DNA of 64,000 nucleotides from Candidatus Heimdallarchaeum endolithica (GTDB lineage: Archaea > Asgardarchaeota > Heimdallarchaeia > Heimdallarchaeales > Heimdallarchaeaceae), in the NCBI GenBank assembly GCA_021513715.1, contig CP084167.1:2624001-2688000 (forward strand), in the 5' to 3' direction. The notes beneath the pieces are model-generated. The model saw nothing but the letters and a program-made list of their open reading frames with translations, was not told the origin of the DNA and ran no database searches. The position numbers and the translations under genes are program-made. Every line of letters starts with the position of its first letter. Within the stretch, counting starts at the first letter, position 1. Of the stretch, positions 1 through 9,321 are shown piece after piece.

Positions 1-289
1 AGTACCTTCTCCCGTTGGTGTCAAACAGAAGGAATAAAACACATCAGAGCTAGAGTTTTTCACCCCGAAACATGTGGAAAAGTAGAAAGACTACATGGGA
101 CAATCATCCGTGAGATGGAAAGATTAGGTCTAAAATACTGCAACGCAGATCTCTCCTACTACCGCTCTTACTACAATTTTAGTCGTCCTCACCAATCTCT
201 TAACTTCCTCACCCCAGGAGAAAGATTTATGAATCACCCCTATGTTTCTCTAGTACCCAAAAGTGTAACCCAAGTCTATTGAGTAAACA
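1..289 (+). mobile_element. IS481-type insertion sequence, copy A (3' part only; transposase C-terminus 1..282, right end ...GAGTAAACA at 289)
   Basis: Frame 1 reads STFSRWCQTEGIKHIRARVFHPETCGKVERLHG...VTQVY*. This appears identical to the C-terminus of the 6067..7005 transposase, and the copy ends with the same terminal repeat. Confidence 0.95.
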
Positions 290-450
290 CCTTTTTTTAC
301 TTGGAAAATATTCTTTTTAGATTCCTTGGTTGGGAAAACAAATCTAAAATTGATAAACTATTGTTATAAGTATTTAATTATATATAACGATTGATAGTTA
401 TCTAAAATTTAATATATTTACTTAAAATCCAAAGAGATAGGGGATTAACG

Positions 451-5031: not shown

Positions 5032-5973
5032 TTATATTTCTGCGGAAGATAATATTATATTTTCAAGTTCTTGAATTTCTAAGTCTATGTCAACTAAAAA
5101 AACTAAAAATTCAGACATTATTGATGCTAGTTCATTTCTTAATTCTTTTCCAAGTTTAATTAGTTCTTCAACAGAAGAAACATCATCCAAACCCCAAGAA
5201 AGAACATCACACAACCTTCCAAGTTGTTCGTCAGGTATTCTTTCTTCATCTTTCGCTTTGTTATTTGTGTTGATTTGAGAAAGAATTTTTTCTGCAGTGT
5301 TAATCTCATCTTCAAAAACCGTGGATAAGGGATTAATGCTCATATCTAACAGCTCACGTAAAATCATTTGAGCTTTATCTCCAAGTTCTGCGGCTTGGAA
5401 AGAAAGATCTGTTATTTCTTCAACTTGCTCTTTTTGAAGTTGTACAATTTCATCTGGTTCTGTAAAAAACTTCTGAATATATTCTCTGTTTTTTTCGTTA
5501 ACTAAAGATATTTGCTGCCTAAAACTAGCTGATTCTTCAGTCTCTGATGAGAGGAGATAATATATTTCTTGCCATTTATTGTTTAATTTTTCTTTAATTA
5601 AAAACAAGTCTTTTGCTTTTTCCAAAACGTTAATAATTTTCTCAACAATTGCCTCTTTTTCAATCAATCCTTTTGTGCGAGCTCGAGAAACTTCTTCATC
5701 AAATTCTCTAGAAACACTTTCATTTACTCTGAGATTATCTATAAGAGAACTTTGATAATATGTTCGCGCTAGAGAAGCCATGAGTGAAAGTAGTGAAGAA
5801 CGCAAAGAGAAAAGTGATCCTTCATCTGAACTCAAAAAAATATCTATGTACTCAAACAAAGAACCCATTTTTTTGTAAAGCTTACGAATAGGTCTATAGT
5901 TTAAATTATCTAGAAATTTACCTAATAAGGTCTGTCTCTCCAGAACGGTATCAGTATAATTATGCATTGTCAT
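5032..5973 (-). CDS. Hypothetical helical protein
   Basis: 313-aa ORF with host-like composition; no recognisable motif. Confidence 0.6.
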   Translation of the reverse strand: MTMHNYTDTVLERQTLLGKFLDNLNYRPIRKLYKKMGSLFEYIDIFLSSDEGSLFSLRSSLLSLMASLARTYYQSSLIDNLRVNESVSREFDEEVSRARTKGLIEKEAIVEKIINVLEKAKDLFLIKEKLNNKWQEIYYLLSSETEESASFRQQISLVNEKNREYIQKFFTEPDEIVQLQKEQVEEITDLSFQAAELGDKAQMILRELLDMSINPLSTVFEDEINTAEKILSQINTNNKAKDEERIPDEQLGRLCDVLSWGLDDVSSVEELIKLGKELRNELASIMSEFLVFLVDIDLEIQELENIILSSAEI

Positions 5974-6059: not shown

Positions 6060-7069
6060 TGTTTACTCAATAGACTTGGGTTACACTTTTGGGTACTAGA
6101 GAAACATAGGGGTGATTCATAAATCTTTCTCCTGGGGTGAGGAAGTTAAGAGATTGGTGAGGACGACTAAAATTGTAGTAAGAGCGGTAGTAGGAGAGAT
6201 CTGCGTTGCAGTATTTTAGACCTAATCTTTCCATCTCACGGATGATTGTCCCATGTAGTCTTTCTACTTTTCCACATGTTTCGGGGTGAAAAACTCTAGC
6301 TCTGATGTGTTTTATTCCTTCTGTTTGACACCAACGGGAGAAGGTACTTGTTCCTCCTCTAACGGAAGAGAAGAGTGCTCCATTGTCCGTGAGGATAGAC
6401 TCGGGGTAACCGTACTCTTTTATTGCTTCCTCTAGCAAACTTATTATCTGCTCTTTTTTTGGTGCAAAAGGGTGGAATTCAGCTCCCAGACAGAATCGTG
6501 AGTGGTCGTCTATCAAGGTTATGAGATGGAGATGTTGTCCCTGTTCTTCTACCCAGAATGGTCCTTTCACATCTATTTGCCAGAGTTCGTTAGGTTTTTG
6601 ACGTTCAAAACTCTTGTATCGAGGTCTTTTCCTCTTTTTTCTATTAACCCATAAAGGAAGACCTAACTCTTTTATTACTTTCGTCACTGTCGTCTGAGAG
6701 AGTGCTTTTCCTTCTCTCTTCAACAAATAAGCTATCTTCTCCACATTCATTCCTTGTTTTATTCTTAACTCCCTTATCCTCTCTTTTAACTCCTCATCTA
6801 CTTTCCTGTGTATAGTTTTTGGTCTGGAAGATCTATCTTTCCACCATACTCCTTCAGGGTTCTCTCTGAACCTCTTCAACCACTTATACACAAACTTCCT
6901 ACTCACCATATACTTGTGAGCTACCTCTTTTATCTTCTCTCCTTCCAAAGCTTTTTTAACCACAATCTTTCTTAGTTTCTCCAGGTTACGTTCGGGTTTG
7001 TTCATAATATATCACTTACCCACGTAACCCACTTCTATTTATTTGTTACCAATGTGAGTTGAGTATACA
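6060..7069 (-). mobile_element. IS481-type insertion sequence, copy B (complete, 1010 bp, TGT...ACA ends, 16-bp TSD)
   Basis: Imperfect 26-bp TIRs at 6060-6085 and 7044-7069 (19/26 match); direct repeat GCAAGTCACTTGATTG at 6044-6059 and 7070-7085. Confidence 0.96.
6067..7005 (-). CDS. IS481-family DDE transposase (HTH + rve integrase core)
   Basis: N-terminal HTH (VSRKFVYKWLKRF); WQID, IDDHSR, LTDNG and GKVER motifs; the stop codon lies inside the terminal repeat. Confidence 0.95.
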   Translation of the reverse strand: MNKPERNLEKLRKIVVKKALEGEKIKEVAHKYMVSRKFVYKWLKRFRENPEGVWWKDRSSRPKTIHRKVDEELKERIRELRIKQGMNVEKIAYLLKREGKALSQTTVTKVIKELGLPLWVNRKKRKRPRYKSFERQKPNELWQIDVKGPFWVEEQGQHLHLITLIDDHSRFCLGAEFHPFAPKKEQIISLLEEAIKEYGYPESILTDNGALFSSVRGGTSTFSRWCQTEGIKHIRARVFHPETCGKVERLHGTIIREMERLGLKYCNADLSYYRSYYNFSRPHQSLNFLTPGERFMNHPYVSLVPKSVTQVY

Positions 7070-7134: not shown

Positions 7135-7671
7135 CTAAAGTAGTTTTTTTGATTTTGCTACATACCAACCTAAAATCGTAGCTCCGTGAATAATCTTGTT
7201 ATTCTGTATTAATTCTTCAACTTCCGTTTTTGAAAATTCTAAAACATCTATAAATTCATCTTCGTCTAGATTTTGTTTACCCTCTTTTTCTACAATAGCA
7301 AAATAAAGATGTCCCCAACTACTACTGAAAGCAACAGGATGCCAAGTTAGTAAAGATTCAATAGAAACTACTTTGTAACCAGTTTCTTCCCTTACTTCTC
7401 TTTTTGCAGAGCGAATTGGGTCTTCTTCTGGCTCTATAAGCCCTGCAGGAATCTCAATACTCATACTAGTCCAAGGGTATCTGTACTGTTTTATCATAAT
7501 TAAGTTTTTATCCTTCGTCATGCATACAGTGGCAGTGAAGTTTTTACTTTCAACAACAGAAAATTCTACTTCTTTGCCTTTTGGATTCTGTACTTTATCA
7601 TTTCTTACCTTGAGATAATTATTCGAATAAACTTCATTTTTATTTATGCATATCCAGTTGCTTATGTCCAT
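7135..7671 (-). CDS. Nudix hydrolase (ADP-ribose pyrophosphatase-like)
   Basis: Nudix box GLIEPEEDPIRSAKREVREETG and QYRYP motif. Confidence 0.92.
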   Translation of the reverse strand: MDISNWICINKNEVYSNNYLKVRNDKVQNPKGKEVEFSVVESKNFTATVCMTKDKNLIMIKQYRYPWTSMSIEIPAGLIEPEEDPIRSAKREVREETGYKVVSIESLLTWHPVAFSSSWGHLYFAIVEKEGKQNLDEDEFIDVLEFSKTEVEELIQNNKIIHGATILGWYVAKSKKLL

Positions 7672-7799
7672 GAGATACTTTTTTACTTAAAAAATTAAAT
7701 TTTTAGTTTGTGGAGTTATTAGACCAATAACAACCTGAAACACATTTGCATAAATAAAGAATACAAGATATTGGGGAGTGTAACAACTTTTCCGCTGTC

Positions 7800-7807
7800 T
7801 TTATATA
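7800..7807 (+). promoter_or_regulatory. Putative TATA box for the element-3 RNA
   Basis: TTTATATA about 25 nt upstream of the first hairpin (G7829). Confidence 0.55.
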
Positions 7808-7828
7808 TTTAATTCTCATTTATCTAAT

Positions 7829-8046
7829 GTCTTGAGCTATATGCTTAAAGACGTAGGTTTCATTTCTACGACACCCGGTCTTTCCTTTGGGGGTTATGAG
7901 TGCCCGGGATCAGGAGATGAACCCCTTAGAGAACTTAATTAAGACTGTGTCTTTCATGTTCTCTTAAGCAAGTCTTCACAACATTTGCTATGTTTATTGA
8001 CTGGTTGGGTAGAGTCCTGAAGAAATTAAGTAAAATTTCAACTCAT
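7829..8046 (+). ncRNA. Structured RNA, candidate omegaRNA-like scaffold
   Basis: GC-enriched. Stems 7829-7837/7843-7852, 7852-7857/7865-7870, 7874-7878/7904-7908 and 7928-7934/7958-7964; crossing pairings 7890-7895/7920-7925 and 7910-7915/8015-8020. G-U pairs favour the + strand. Confidence 0.65.
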
Positions 8047-8084
8047 TAGTATCACAAATCCTTAAAAAGAAGAAGAAAAGAAAA

Positions 8085-9308
8085 CTAAATTTCTTCACTC
8101 TCTTTTTTTGTATTGTACTCTCTAACTAATTTTGTTAATTCTGGAATGATTTTCAATATGTCTCCAATAACAGATAGGTTAGCGACTTTAAATATTGGTG
8201 CTTCAGGGTCATTGTTTACAGCAACAATAACATCAGAGCTTTTCATACCCACTAGATGTTGTACCGCTCCAGAAATGCCAAAAGCTAAGTAGAGATTAGG
8301 TGAAACAGTTTTTCCTGACTGACCAACTTGTCTAGCATGAGGTAACCATCCAATATCTACTAAAGCTCTTGACCCTGATAATGTTGCTCCCATTGCTTCA
8401 GCTAGCTCTTGAGCGATTTTTATGTTTTCTTTGCTTTCTATTCCTCTACCAACTGAAACAAGTTTATCTGCTTCTTCTATATTTACAACTTCATCCAAAA
8501 CGTGAATTTCTTCAAGTATTTTTGTTCTGATGGAAGAACGTTTAAGTTTCACTTCAAAAATTTCTGTTTTTCCTTCTTTTGTTTTATCTTCTTTAGGTTT
8601 CTTAAATACGTTTGGTCTTACAGTAGACATCTGAGGACGGGTGTATGGAGATAAGATCGAAGCCATGATATTTCCACCAAAAGCTGGTCTTGTTTGAACT
8701 AGTTGGTTCTCTTTATCAATATCTAATCCTGTACAATCCGCTGTTAGACCTAGACCTAGCCTTGCAGCTACTCTAGGGGCAAGATCTCTCCCATTAGGGG
8801 TAGCTCCATAAAGAACGATTGAAGGTTTTTTTGCAGCAATTATACTTGAAATCACTGTAGCATAACCATCAGTAGTATATGCTTCTAATAATTCATGCTC
8901 TGCTAAAATAACTTTGTCTGCTCCATGATGGAACAATGTAGAAACCAGTTGTTCAACATTGTATCCTGCTAAGACAACAGTTAACTCTTCATTTACTCTA
9001 TCTGCAAGTTCTCTCCCTTTTCCTAATAGTTCCAAAACAACATTCTTGATATGCGGAATGTTTTCTCTTTTCTCCCACTCTCCCCATATAAAAACGCCAG
9101 TGTATTGAGATAATTGTTCCTTTGAAACTGTTTTCCTTTCAATAGTAAGTGCTCCATAAGGGCAAGCATTAACACATGTTCCACATAGAGTGCAATTTTC
9201 TAAAACTTTTGCTTTTTTTGTGTCAGTTGGGACAATTATTGCTCCAAAAGGACAAACTTTTTCGCAAATTCCACAGCCAATACATTTTTCCATATCAACG
9301 ATTAACAT
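8085..9308 (-). CDS. etfA: Electron transfer flavoprotein alpha subunit with N-terminal 2x[4Fe-4S] ferredoxin domain
   Basis: CIGCGICEKVCP and CTLCGTCVNACP; GLTADCT; QVGQSGKTV; GISGAVQHLVGM. Likely start is ATG 9308 after GGAGGAG. Confidence 0.93.
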   Translation of the reverse strand: MLIVDMEKCIGCGICEKVCPFGAIIVPTDTKKAKVLENCTLCGTCVNACPYGALTIERKTVSKEQLSQYTGVFIWGEWEKRENIPHIKNVVLELLGKGRELADRVNEELTVVLAGYNVEQLVSTLFHHGADKVILAEHELLEAYTTDGYATVISSIIAAKKPSIVLYGATPNGRDLAPRVAARLGLGLTADCTGLDIDKENQLVQTRPAFGGNIMASILSPYTRPQMSTVRPNVFKKPKEDKTKEGKTEIFEVKLKRSSIRTKILEEIHVLDEVVNIEEADKLVSVGRGIESKENIKIAQELAEAMGATLSGSRALVDIGWLPHARQVGQSGKTVSPNLYLAFGISGAVQHLVGMKSSDVIVAVNNDPEAPIFKVANLSVIGDILKIIPELTKLVREYNTKKESEEI

Positions 9309-9321
9309 TTTTTCTCCTCCT

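Follow-up and report, generated by a model that had tools for sequence, protein, structure and literature searches.

A gene-less 375-bp element of the Asgard archaeon Candidatus Heimdallarchaeum endolithica, a probable miniature of a TnpB-only transposon with an omegaRNA scaffold

Guide-RNA-only elements have already been documented in two forms. Stand-alone omegaRNAs that act in trans with compatible effectors were reported by Altae-Tran et al. (2021; summarized in PMC10691335), and palindrome-associated transposable elements (PATEs) bearing omegaRNAs were described in Geobacillus stearothermophilus (Meers et al., 10.1101/2023.03.14.532601). Here, we analysed a 64,000-nucleotide stretch of the genome of Candidatus Heimdallarchaeum endolithica (assembly GCA_021513715.1, contig CP084167.1, positions 2,624,001 to 2,688,000; hereafter the window, with positions counted from its first letter). 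A gene-less mobile element of the miniature TnpB type occupies positions 7672–8046 of its plus strand, between a Nudix hydrolase gene and an etfA-like gene. This element is, in all probability, a non-autonomous miniature (hereafter the mini) of a TnpB-only transposon of the Heimdall group of Asgard archaea, which keeps the transposon ends, an AT core, a TATA box and a complete omegaRNA scaffold.

Like the stand-alone omegaRNAs summarized in PMC10691335, the mini is a mobilized omegaRNA locus lacking both effector and transposase, TnpB elements are found elsewhere in the genome, and the guide comes from beyond the transposon end. It differs from the stand-alone omegaRNAs described there in its Asgard host, in its own archaeal TATA box, in the lack of an effector of the same lineage (at most 45% identity), and in its ends, which are inverted repeats with an AT core and not IS200/IS605 ends. 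With the PATEs of G. stearothermophilus (10.1101/2023.03.14.532601), it shares a minimal, protein-less form with conserved ends, often with an omegaRNA, and a need for TnpB and a transposase in trans. However, those PATEs have asymmetric hairpin ends in common with an identified Y1 TnpA, whereas the mini has symmetric ends and no matching Y1 TnpA.

The mini also resembles the TnpB-only (IS1341-type) elements of the same archaeal family, which have a CAT on the left, an inverted repeat starting with G and an end in ..TCAT; the 1.8-kb TnpB element at 15484–17324 of the window, for example, has the ends CAT|GCTTTACTTTTTGCG...AAAAAGTAAATCAT|. In both cases, an AUGAnU motif located ~145–150 nt from the end of the RNA pairs with a terminal AnUCAU. 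Unlike these elements, the mini has no tnpB gene, and its RNA lies nearer to RNAs of elements from other genera than to those of resident elements. The IS607 family combines a serine-recombinase TnpA with TnpB and has a GG core. The mini is similar to this family in logic only, with a short core dinucleotide at both junctions, no long target duplication and TnpB as a passenger; no serine recombinase gene lies beside any copy, the full-length relatives carry only tnpB, and the core is AT.

A previous account of Heimdallarchaeum genomes (Wu et al. 2022, PMC8813620) notes abundant non-tandem repeats; none of the terms MITE, miniature, IS605, OrfB and insertion sequence is used in its text, and a full-text literature search returned no paper naming both Heimdallarchaeum and TnpB. 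New here are the empty site for the window copy, the covariance link to TnpB-adjacent RNAs, a corrected fold and the apparent absence of the matching nuclease lineage.

Extent, copies and ends of the element

Two closed Heimdallarchaeum genomes were compared: the host genome (G000), a single 3.33-Mb contig, and that of a sister of the same genus (G001). The intergenic gap between the ATG of the Nudix gene and the stop codon of the etfA-like gene is 413 bp long, and its first 375 bp (7672–8046) constitute a discrete, repeated insertion. Using BLAST and nhmmer, 15 further full copies were identified in G000 (16 in total), of which 14 are 92–94% identical and one is 86% identical, along with about nine fragments, almost all of which retain the right end. 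Copies are also present at other sites of G001, and more were found in metagenome contigs. The orthologous nudix–etfA junction of G001 is a precise empty site with a single CAT (...ATCCAT|TAAAATCAC...), indicating that the 375-bp element is mobile and entered its present site after the split of the two Heimdallarchaeum species. An earlier reading made from the sequence alone (the sequence-only reading) had postulated a distinct 375-bp element and proposed the sister junction as a check; the 16 full copies and the exact bounds confirm the former, and the empty site shows that the element is not a fixed housekeeping RNA. The span given in that reading, 7672–8066, was correct at its left edge, but its right edge takes in 20 nt of predicted guide.

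No open reading frame (ORF) of 40 or more amino acids was found inside the element, which thus contains no effector or transposase gene. In an Rfam scan, also proposed earlier, no known RNA family matched at the gathering threshold, and nothing meaningful appeared even at E values up to 10. Its small size, copy number, lack of coding capacity, terminal inverted repeats and polymorphic insertion give the element all the general features of a miniature inverted-repeat transposable element (MITE). When the element was removed in silico, 7–9 of the 16 sites in G000 were found to lie within open frames of 190–590 amino acids, and therefore about half of the copies interrupt genes. Preferential targeting of start codons by the family was considered and rejected, as only two of the 16 copies are located at a start codon and 7–9 are inside long ORFs.

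Two further sets of copies were observed. A copy of an older subfamily (75–77% identical) is present at the same site in both species (G000:C1:2809148-2809280 and locus L025:1341-1767 of G001) with an identical right flank (TAGTCCTCCTCC...), and thus predates the species split; the left two thirds of the G000 copy are gone. Locus L055:1712-2152 of metagenome contig Ga0164318_10030686 contains two partial, overlapping mini copies arranged head to head, which span element positions 224–375 (plus) and 1–230 (minus) and represent a rearranged or nested insertion.

The CAT that flanks the element on the left (7669–7671) is the start codon (ATG) of the minus-strand Nudix gene. Judging from the flanks of the copies and the empty site in G001, the AT of this triplet (7670–7671), which recurs at 8045–8046, is presumably the core dinucleotide. 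Of 24 copies taken from the two genomes and from metagenomes, 21 have CAT as their left flank and three have GAT. CTCAT terminates every copy, and the next base is G in 11 of 16. The CAT repeats that the sequence-only reading placed at the bounds are therefore both present, one in the left flank and one (8044–8046) as the end of the element itself. AT is found at both junctions in every copy, which fits a 2-bp duplication, a recombination core and a CAT target alike. The flanks are otherwise all different, the targets sharing only (C/G)AT and a weak preference. The genome is ~65% A+T and the element itself ends in TCAT, but a T precedes the CAT at only one of the 21 CAT-flanked sites (the three further sites have GAT).

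The left terminal inverted repeat (7672–7690, plus strand; GAGATAC TTTTTTACTTAA) overlaps the palindrome TTTTTTACTTAAAAAA at 7679–7694. The right terminal inverted repeat, including the AT core (8026–8046, plus strand; ...TTAAGTAAAATTTCAACTC AT), shows the highest conservation in the family and is all that is left in most fragments; the right end of the mini reads ...GAAATTACGTAAAATTTCAACTCAT. If the AT of each side is included, the two ends make up an inverted repeat of 21 nt with 76% complementarity (ATGAGATACTTTTTTACTTAA / TTAAGTAAAATTTCAACTCAT). The perfect 10-bp inverted repeat already noticed from the sequence alone (TTTTACTTAA at 7681–7690 and TTAAGTAAAA at 8026–8035) is the inner part of this longer repeat. 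The left end of the mini is similar to that of the TnpB element at 15484–17324, and the ends in general resemble those of TnpB-only elements of the host genome and of other genera.

The RNA module and its fold

A TATA box (TTTATATA, 7800–7807, plus strand) is located 28 nt before the 219-nt RNA module (the omegaRNA scaffold, 7828–8046, plus strand), and transcription from this putative promoter is predicted to start at ~7827–7832. The box is retained in all subfamilies, including 353–358-bp variants with different left halves. Variable columns make up 18% of the RNA half and 34% of the left half, and columns with changes private to single copies make up 8.6% (19/222) and 16.5% (23/139), respectively. 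The better conservation of the RNA half, private changes included, faintly hints that the RNA may still matter.

Double changes within the family affect only four pairs and come mostly from one divergent copy. Because this variation is too small to test the fold, a covariance model of the RNA module (R1), built from 26 distinct copies, was searched over 83 genomes of the class. Full-length matches (245–290 nt, E values of 1e-14 to 1e-2) were obtained in 12 further genomes belonging to two other genera of the same family. Most of them are located directly 3′ of, or overlap the end of, same-strand ORFs of 477–505 amino acids, and all eight of the ORFs tested contain the TnpB TNB domain (PF07282); for the TnpB-adjacent RNAs of other genera, E values range from 1e-14 to 1e-4. 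All the alignments run up to the final base of the element (..ACUCAU or ..AAUCAU). In a combined alignment of 13 minis and 16 distant matches, 92.9% of the cells form standard pairs, a percentage somewhat inflated by the fitting of the alignment to R1, and 41 of the 59 pairs are changed on both sides. None of 500 shuffles reached these two values, and sliding the partners by 1–3 columns reduced the pairing to 40–50%. Despite the inflation, compensatory changes are plainly visible; the helix AGAGAAC/GUUCUCU, for example, changes to CACCUCC/GGAGGUG. The RNA module is homologous to TnpB-adjacent RNAs, and its fold is backed by covariation.

When the filters were switched off, R1 additionally picked up the RNA tail of the window's own TnpB element ('element 1'; omegaRNA at 15485–15671, minus strand) at 22.1 bits and an E value of 7.7e-6. 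This global alignment runs as far as the terminus of that element, AAAUCAU, and the RNA can be regarded as a distant homologue of the mini RNA. The weak hint of homology to the element-1 RNA that had been obtained from the letters alone thus turned out to be real. BLASTN (word size 7) and nhmmer with the family profile revealed nothing similar in the 3′ flank of any tnpB of the host genome, and a profile of the resident TnpB RNAs gave no match to the 375-bp family. The mini RNA is nearest to the RNAs of elements in other genera (53 bits, compared with 22 bits for resident RNAs). The matches to TnpB-adjacent RNAs and to the element-1 RNA, combined with the strong covariation, support the interpretation of the module as a stand-alone omegaRNA; together with the empty site, they bear out the protein-less mobile omegaRNA cassette of the sequence-only reading, which had also suggested building a covariance model from homologous copies.

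Gene-less relatives were also found in genus g2 (loci L058, L061 and L072; genomes G002 and G017). They consist of the left end, the TATA box of tnpB and the start of the RNA, and the distance from the first T of the tnpB TATA box to the RNA start, UGUCUU, is 28 nt, as in the window copy. Deletion of the tnpB ORF, which places the omegaRNA under the tnpB promoter, thus appears to have happened more than once, independently.

In the covariation alignment, supported helices are found at 7829–7852, 7853–7869, 7880–7893 and 7968–8005 (all features of the fold are on the plus strand). A long-range closing helix is formed by AUGAGU (7896–7901) and ACUCAU (8041–8046), the last bases of the element; it is 97% paired and invariant in the mini RNA type. 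Resident RNAs of the element-1 type have AUGAUU/AAUCAU at the same distance of ~145–150 nt from the end, a compensatory change between the lineages. The hairpin AGAGAAC...GUUCUCU with an inner AGAC-UGU-GUCU hairpin (7928–7964) is ~98% paired, with double changes at 7 of 7 outer and 4 of 5 inner pairs, and the outer helix agrees with the AGAGAAC/GUUCUC pairing drawn previously. The right-end hairpin GAAAUU-AAGUAA-AAUUUC (8022–8039; helix 11), which is at once the 3′ region of the RNA and the transposon end, is 89.8% paired and has five covarying pairs. UCAGGA (7910–7915) and UCCUGA (8015–8020) are 95.6% paired with one covarying pair (C-G in 12 sequences and G-C in five) and enclose the two middle hairpins. 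A hairpin proposed by RNAalifold, UUGGG/CCUGA, received less support than UCAGGA/UCCUGA and was not adopted.

The module is probably pseudoknotted, but by strands other than those suggested by the sequence-only reading, namely GGGGUU/AACCCC and UCAGGA/UCCUGA. At the GGGGUU site, the family consensus GGGAG pairs with CUUCC in a hairpin with four covarying pairs, and GGGGG in the window is a copy-specific substitution, which leaves the GGGGUU/AACCCC helix unsupported; the UCAGGA/UCCUGA helix exists, but is nested rather than crossing. The crossing pair that we consider probable consists of the closing helix and helix P1, CCCGG (7874–7878) with CCGGG (7904–7908), for which support is moderate: P1 is 74.6% paired in an alignment (A4) whose register is off by 1 nt for one group, and it is absent in group Y. 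Its equivalent in element-1-type RNAs is CGUGG/CCACG. A pseudoknot adjoining the guide is reportedly a trait of TnpB and Cas12f RNAs, as seen in the 2023 ISDra2 structures. The earlier estimate of about 220 nt with four hairpins was accurate in length (219 nt), but the hairpins number more than four.

In the proposed mechanism, transcription would begin ~25 nt past the TATA box and run through the right end, and the first 16–20 nt of flanking DNA (UAGUAUCACAAAUCC...) would become the guide. For the window copy, the predicted guide is UAGUAUCACAAAUCCUUAAA (8047–8066, plus strand), outside the element; R1 ends exactly at 8046, and the role as a guide is that expected from the family. The 14-mer of the guide is unique in the host genome, and a 3-mismatch match preceded by CTCAT was dismissed as a chance hit. 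A TnpB provided in trans would cleave the empty site (..CCAT followed by TAGTATCACAAATCC), and the break would be repaired by recombination with a chromosome copy that still carries the element, which would thereby be regained, as in the retention or homing mechanism shown for IS605-family TnpB (10.1101/2023.03.14.532601). Since the element itself ends in TCAT and a T is almost never found at that position of insertion sites, the occupied site would escape cleavage. A TAM of VCAT is predicted, with TCAT disfavoured. Movement to new sites would require a separate enzyme.

Nuclease supply, mobilization and alternative explanations

G000 contains about 20 TnpB genes, among which types A and B are 80–88% identical and share 53% identity with type C. 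Resident types are encoded at 15723–17180 of the window and at genome positions 2031900 and 710396. Several observations weigh against a TnpB-derived guide-RNA element that is still at work. The TnpBs encoded beside the nearest RNA relatives reach only 36–44% identity with any TnpB of G000 and no more than 45% with any of G001, and a tnpB gene with the ends or RNA of the mini was not found in the two closed Heimdallarchaeum genomes, one metagenome scan or two viral scans; the genome collection likewise contained no tnpB with its right end. The resident TnpB RNAs cannot be aligned to the mini RNA by BLAST or nhmmer, most G000 copies have UAAGGA in place of UCAGGA, which weakens that helix, and the window copy differs from the RNA consensus by ~12 substitutions and has one broken pair; the pairing percentage of the combined alignment is also to be read with the reservation given above. 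A full-length parent was likewise not recovered: a scan of a genome collection with one genome per species returned only copies in Ca. Heimdallarchaeum aukensis PM71 (CP084166.1), the metagenome scan returned only minis and fragments, and the two viral-contig scans returned nothing. Given the identity of at most 45% and the lack of a tnpB with the right end of the mini, the nuclease lineage proper to this RNA seems to be absent from both closed genomes.

The most serious alternative is that the element is an orphan relic whose nuclease lineage is gone and whose RNA cannot be used by the resident TnpBs, a passive MITE moved by a shared transposition enzyme. We regard this as a substantial possibility, though one falling somewhat short of even. 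It accords with the lack of a cognate-lineage TnpB (the best resident being no more than 45% identical to the nucleases beside the nearest RNA relatives), the failure of sequence searches to detect the resident RNAs, the divergence of 6–8% among copies with no sign of a very recent burst, and the presence of the UAAGGA variant in many copies. It is less compatible with the conservation of the RNA half, which is about twice that of the left half even in private changes, with the intactness of the TATA box and all helices in nearly every copy, and with the architecture and key motifs that the module has in common with the element-1-type RNA of resident TnpBs. A fixed host noncoding RNA, or a cis-regulatory leader of nudix or etfA, would be intergenic and structured and could have its own promoter-like box, as the module does. 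However, the element is absent at the orthologous junction of the sister genome, occupies at least 16 unrelated sites, 7–9 of them inside long ORFs, and has no Rfam match; the empty site and the copy number refute this explanation, to which we attach practically no weight.

The ends argue against an IS200/IS605-type PATE moved as single-stranded DNA by a Y1 (HUH) TnpA, with a CAT target on the left and cleavage at TCAT on the right. Strictly oriented insertion beside CAT, the lack of a long flank duplication and the subterminal palindromes at both ends had been in its favour. Yet the ends are mutually inverted (21 nt, 76%) with AT at both junctions, some copies have GAT in place of CAT on the left, and the full-length relatives have inverted ends of ~25 bp with tandem subrepeats and no tnpA. 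Moreover, the sole Y1 tnpA of the genome resides in an IS605 element (G000:C1:923860-925990; tnpA and a 408-amino-acid tnpB) whose GC-rich end hairpins are unrelated. The 86% copy of the mini interrupts this tnpA right behind the second codon (ATGCCAT|), and the frame continues past the insert without a start codon. On the basis of the end analysis and this disrupted locus, the PATE explanation was dropped as very unlikely; the ends are imperfect inverted repeats with an AT core and not IS200/IS605-like. A mini carrying a bridge RNA of the IS110/IS1111 type would likewise lack genes and a long target duplication and have a structured RNA and a short core at each junction, but one bridge RNA would dictate a single 10–14-nt target, whereas the targets here share only (C/G)AT and a weak preference, and homologues of the mini RNA are encoded at the 3′ end of tnpB genes; the likelihood of this explanation is negligible.

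The preferred reading therefore has two parts of different strength. That the element is, in identity and origin, a miniature derived from a TnpB transposon with its guide RNA is very likely. Its present-day activity as a guide is rather doubtful, since resident TnpBs share no more than 45% identity with the nucleases found alongside related RNAs. A further possibility, which we consider unlikely, is that resident TnpBs of other lineages, although only 37–45% identical to the nucleases found with this RNA type elsewhere, load the heterologous omegaRNA in trans, so that the mini would be a parasite of foreign nucleases. If this were true, the mini would have spread and been retained in two Heimdallarchaeum species, its own nuclease never having been carried or having been lost. 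A linked, likewise unlikely possibility is that the AT-core superfamily as a whole is moved by a chromosomal, vertically inherited recombinase instead of a transposase encoded by the elements.

In the search for candidate mobilizing enzymes, no IS630-type DDE_3 gene was found in the genome. The only two genes with a Resolvase (serine recombinase) domain, located at G000:C1:316731-317582 and 405384-406202 (L076 and L077), are single-copy, lie among housekeeping genes and do not adjoin any mini copy. Both paralogues are conserved in 29 of 31 genomes of the family, with identities to the first protein of 70–91% and ~45%, and the two genes look like vertically inherited host genes. The two proteins are candidates for moving AT-core elements in trans, as are Cas1 homologues, for which hits were also obtained.

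Guide-RNA-only derivatives show that the RNA and protein parts of TnpB systems are separable and can be shared, the same modularity from which CRISPR arrays with trans-acting effectors arose. The Asgard archaeal case is distinguished by reuse of the tnpB promoter for the RNA, symmetric AT-core ends and the apparent absence from the genome of any nuclease of its own lineage. It provides a defined test case for the use of omegaRNAs across lineages and for the question of what moves archaeal TnpB-only elements.

Neighbouring genes and local effects

The Nudix hydrolase gene (7135–7671, minus strand; 178 amino acids; Pfam NUDIX, E value of 7.4e-15) is intact and 86% identical in DNA sequence to its orthologue in G001, where the gene directly abuts the etfA 3′ flank. 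In the window, the whole of the DNA that once lay upstream of it is now 375 bp away. The earlier claim was that the element separates the ATG from its Shine–Dalgarno sequence; as the host is an archaeon, a promoter is the likelier loss for this gene. On the minus strand, in the direction of the Nudix gene, the element's left end (7672–7700) has an A/T-rich sequence, TTTAATTTTTTAA, at ~-29 to -17 from the ATG, and G001 has TTTTTATTTTTAA at a similar distance. Speculatively, the end of the element may substitute for the lost promoter. For annotation, the element accounts for the apparently 'intergenic' gap and for the loss of the native upstream region of the Nudix gene.

On the other side, the etfA-like gene (8085–9371, minus strand; ferredoxin domain and ETF alpha; Pfam ETF, ETF_alpha and Fer4) faces the element with its 3′ end. 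The first oligo-T run downstream of the element, a candidate archaeal terminator (8103–8109, plus strand), lies in this 3′ end in antisense orientation. Because no earlier T-run is met past the element, transcription of the RNA module plausibly crosses the stop codon of etfA in antisense and extends to 8103–8109.

Just past the Nudix gene, another mobile element is represented by an rve-type integrase gene (helix-turn-helix and rve domains, 312 amino acids; 6067–7005) and an adjoining 313-amino-acid ORF without a Pfam match (5032–5973). The etfA-like gene belongs to an operon (8085–11762) that encodes a FAD-linked oxidase, EtfB, and EtfA with an N-terminal two-[4Fe-4S] ferredoxin domain. This operon resembles those for electron-bifurcating lactate or glycolate dehydrogenase–Etf complexes and is of metabolic interest for an Asgard archaeon.

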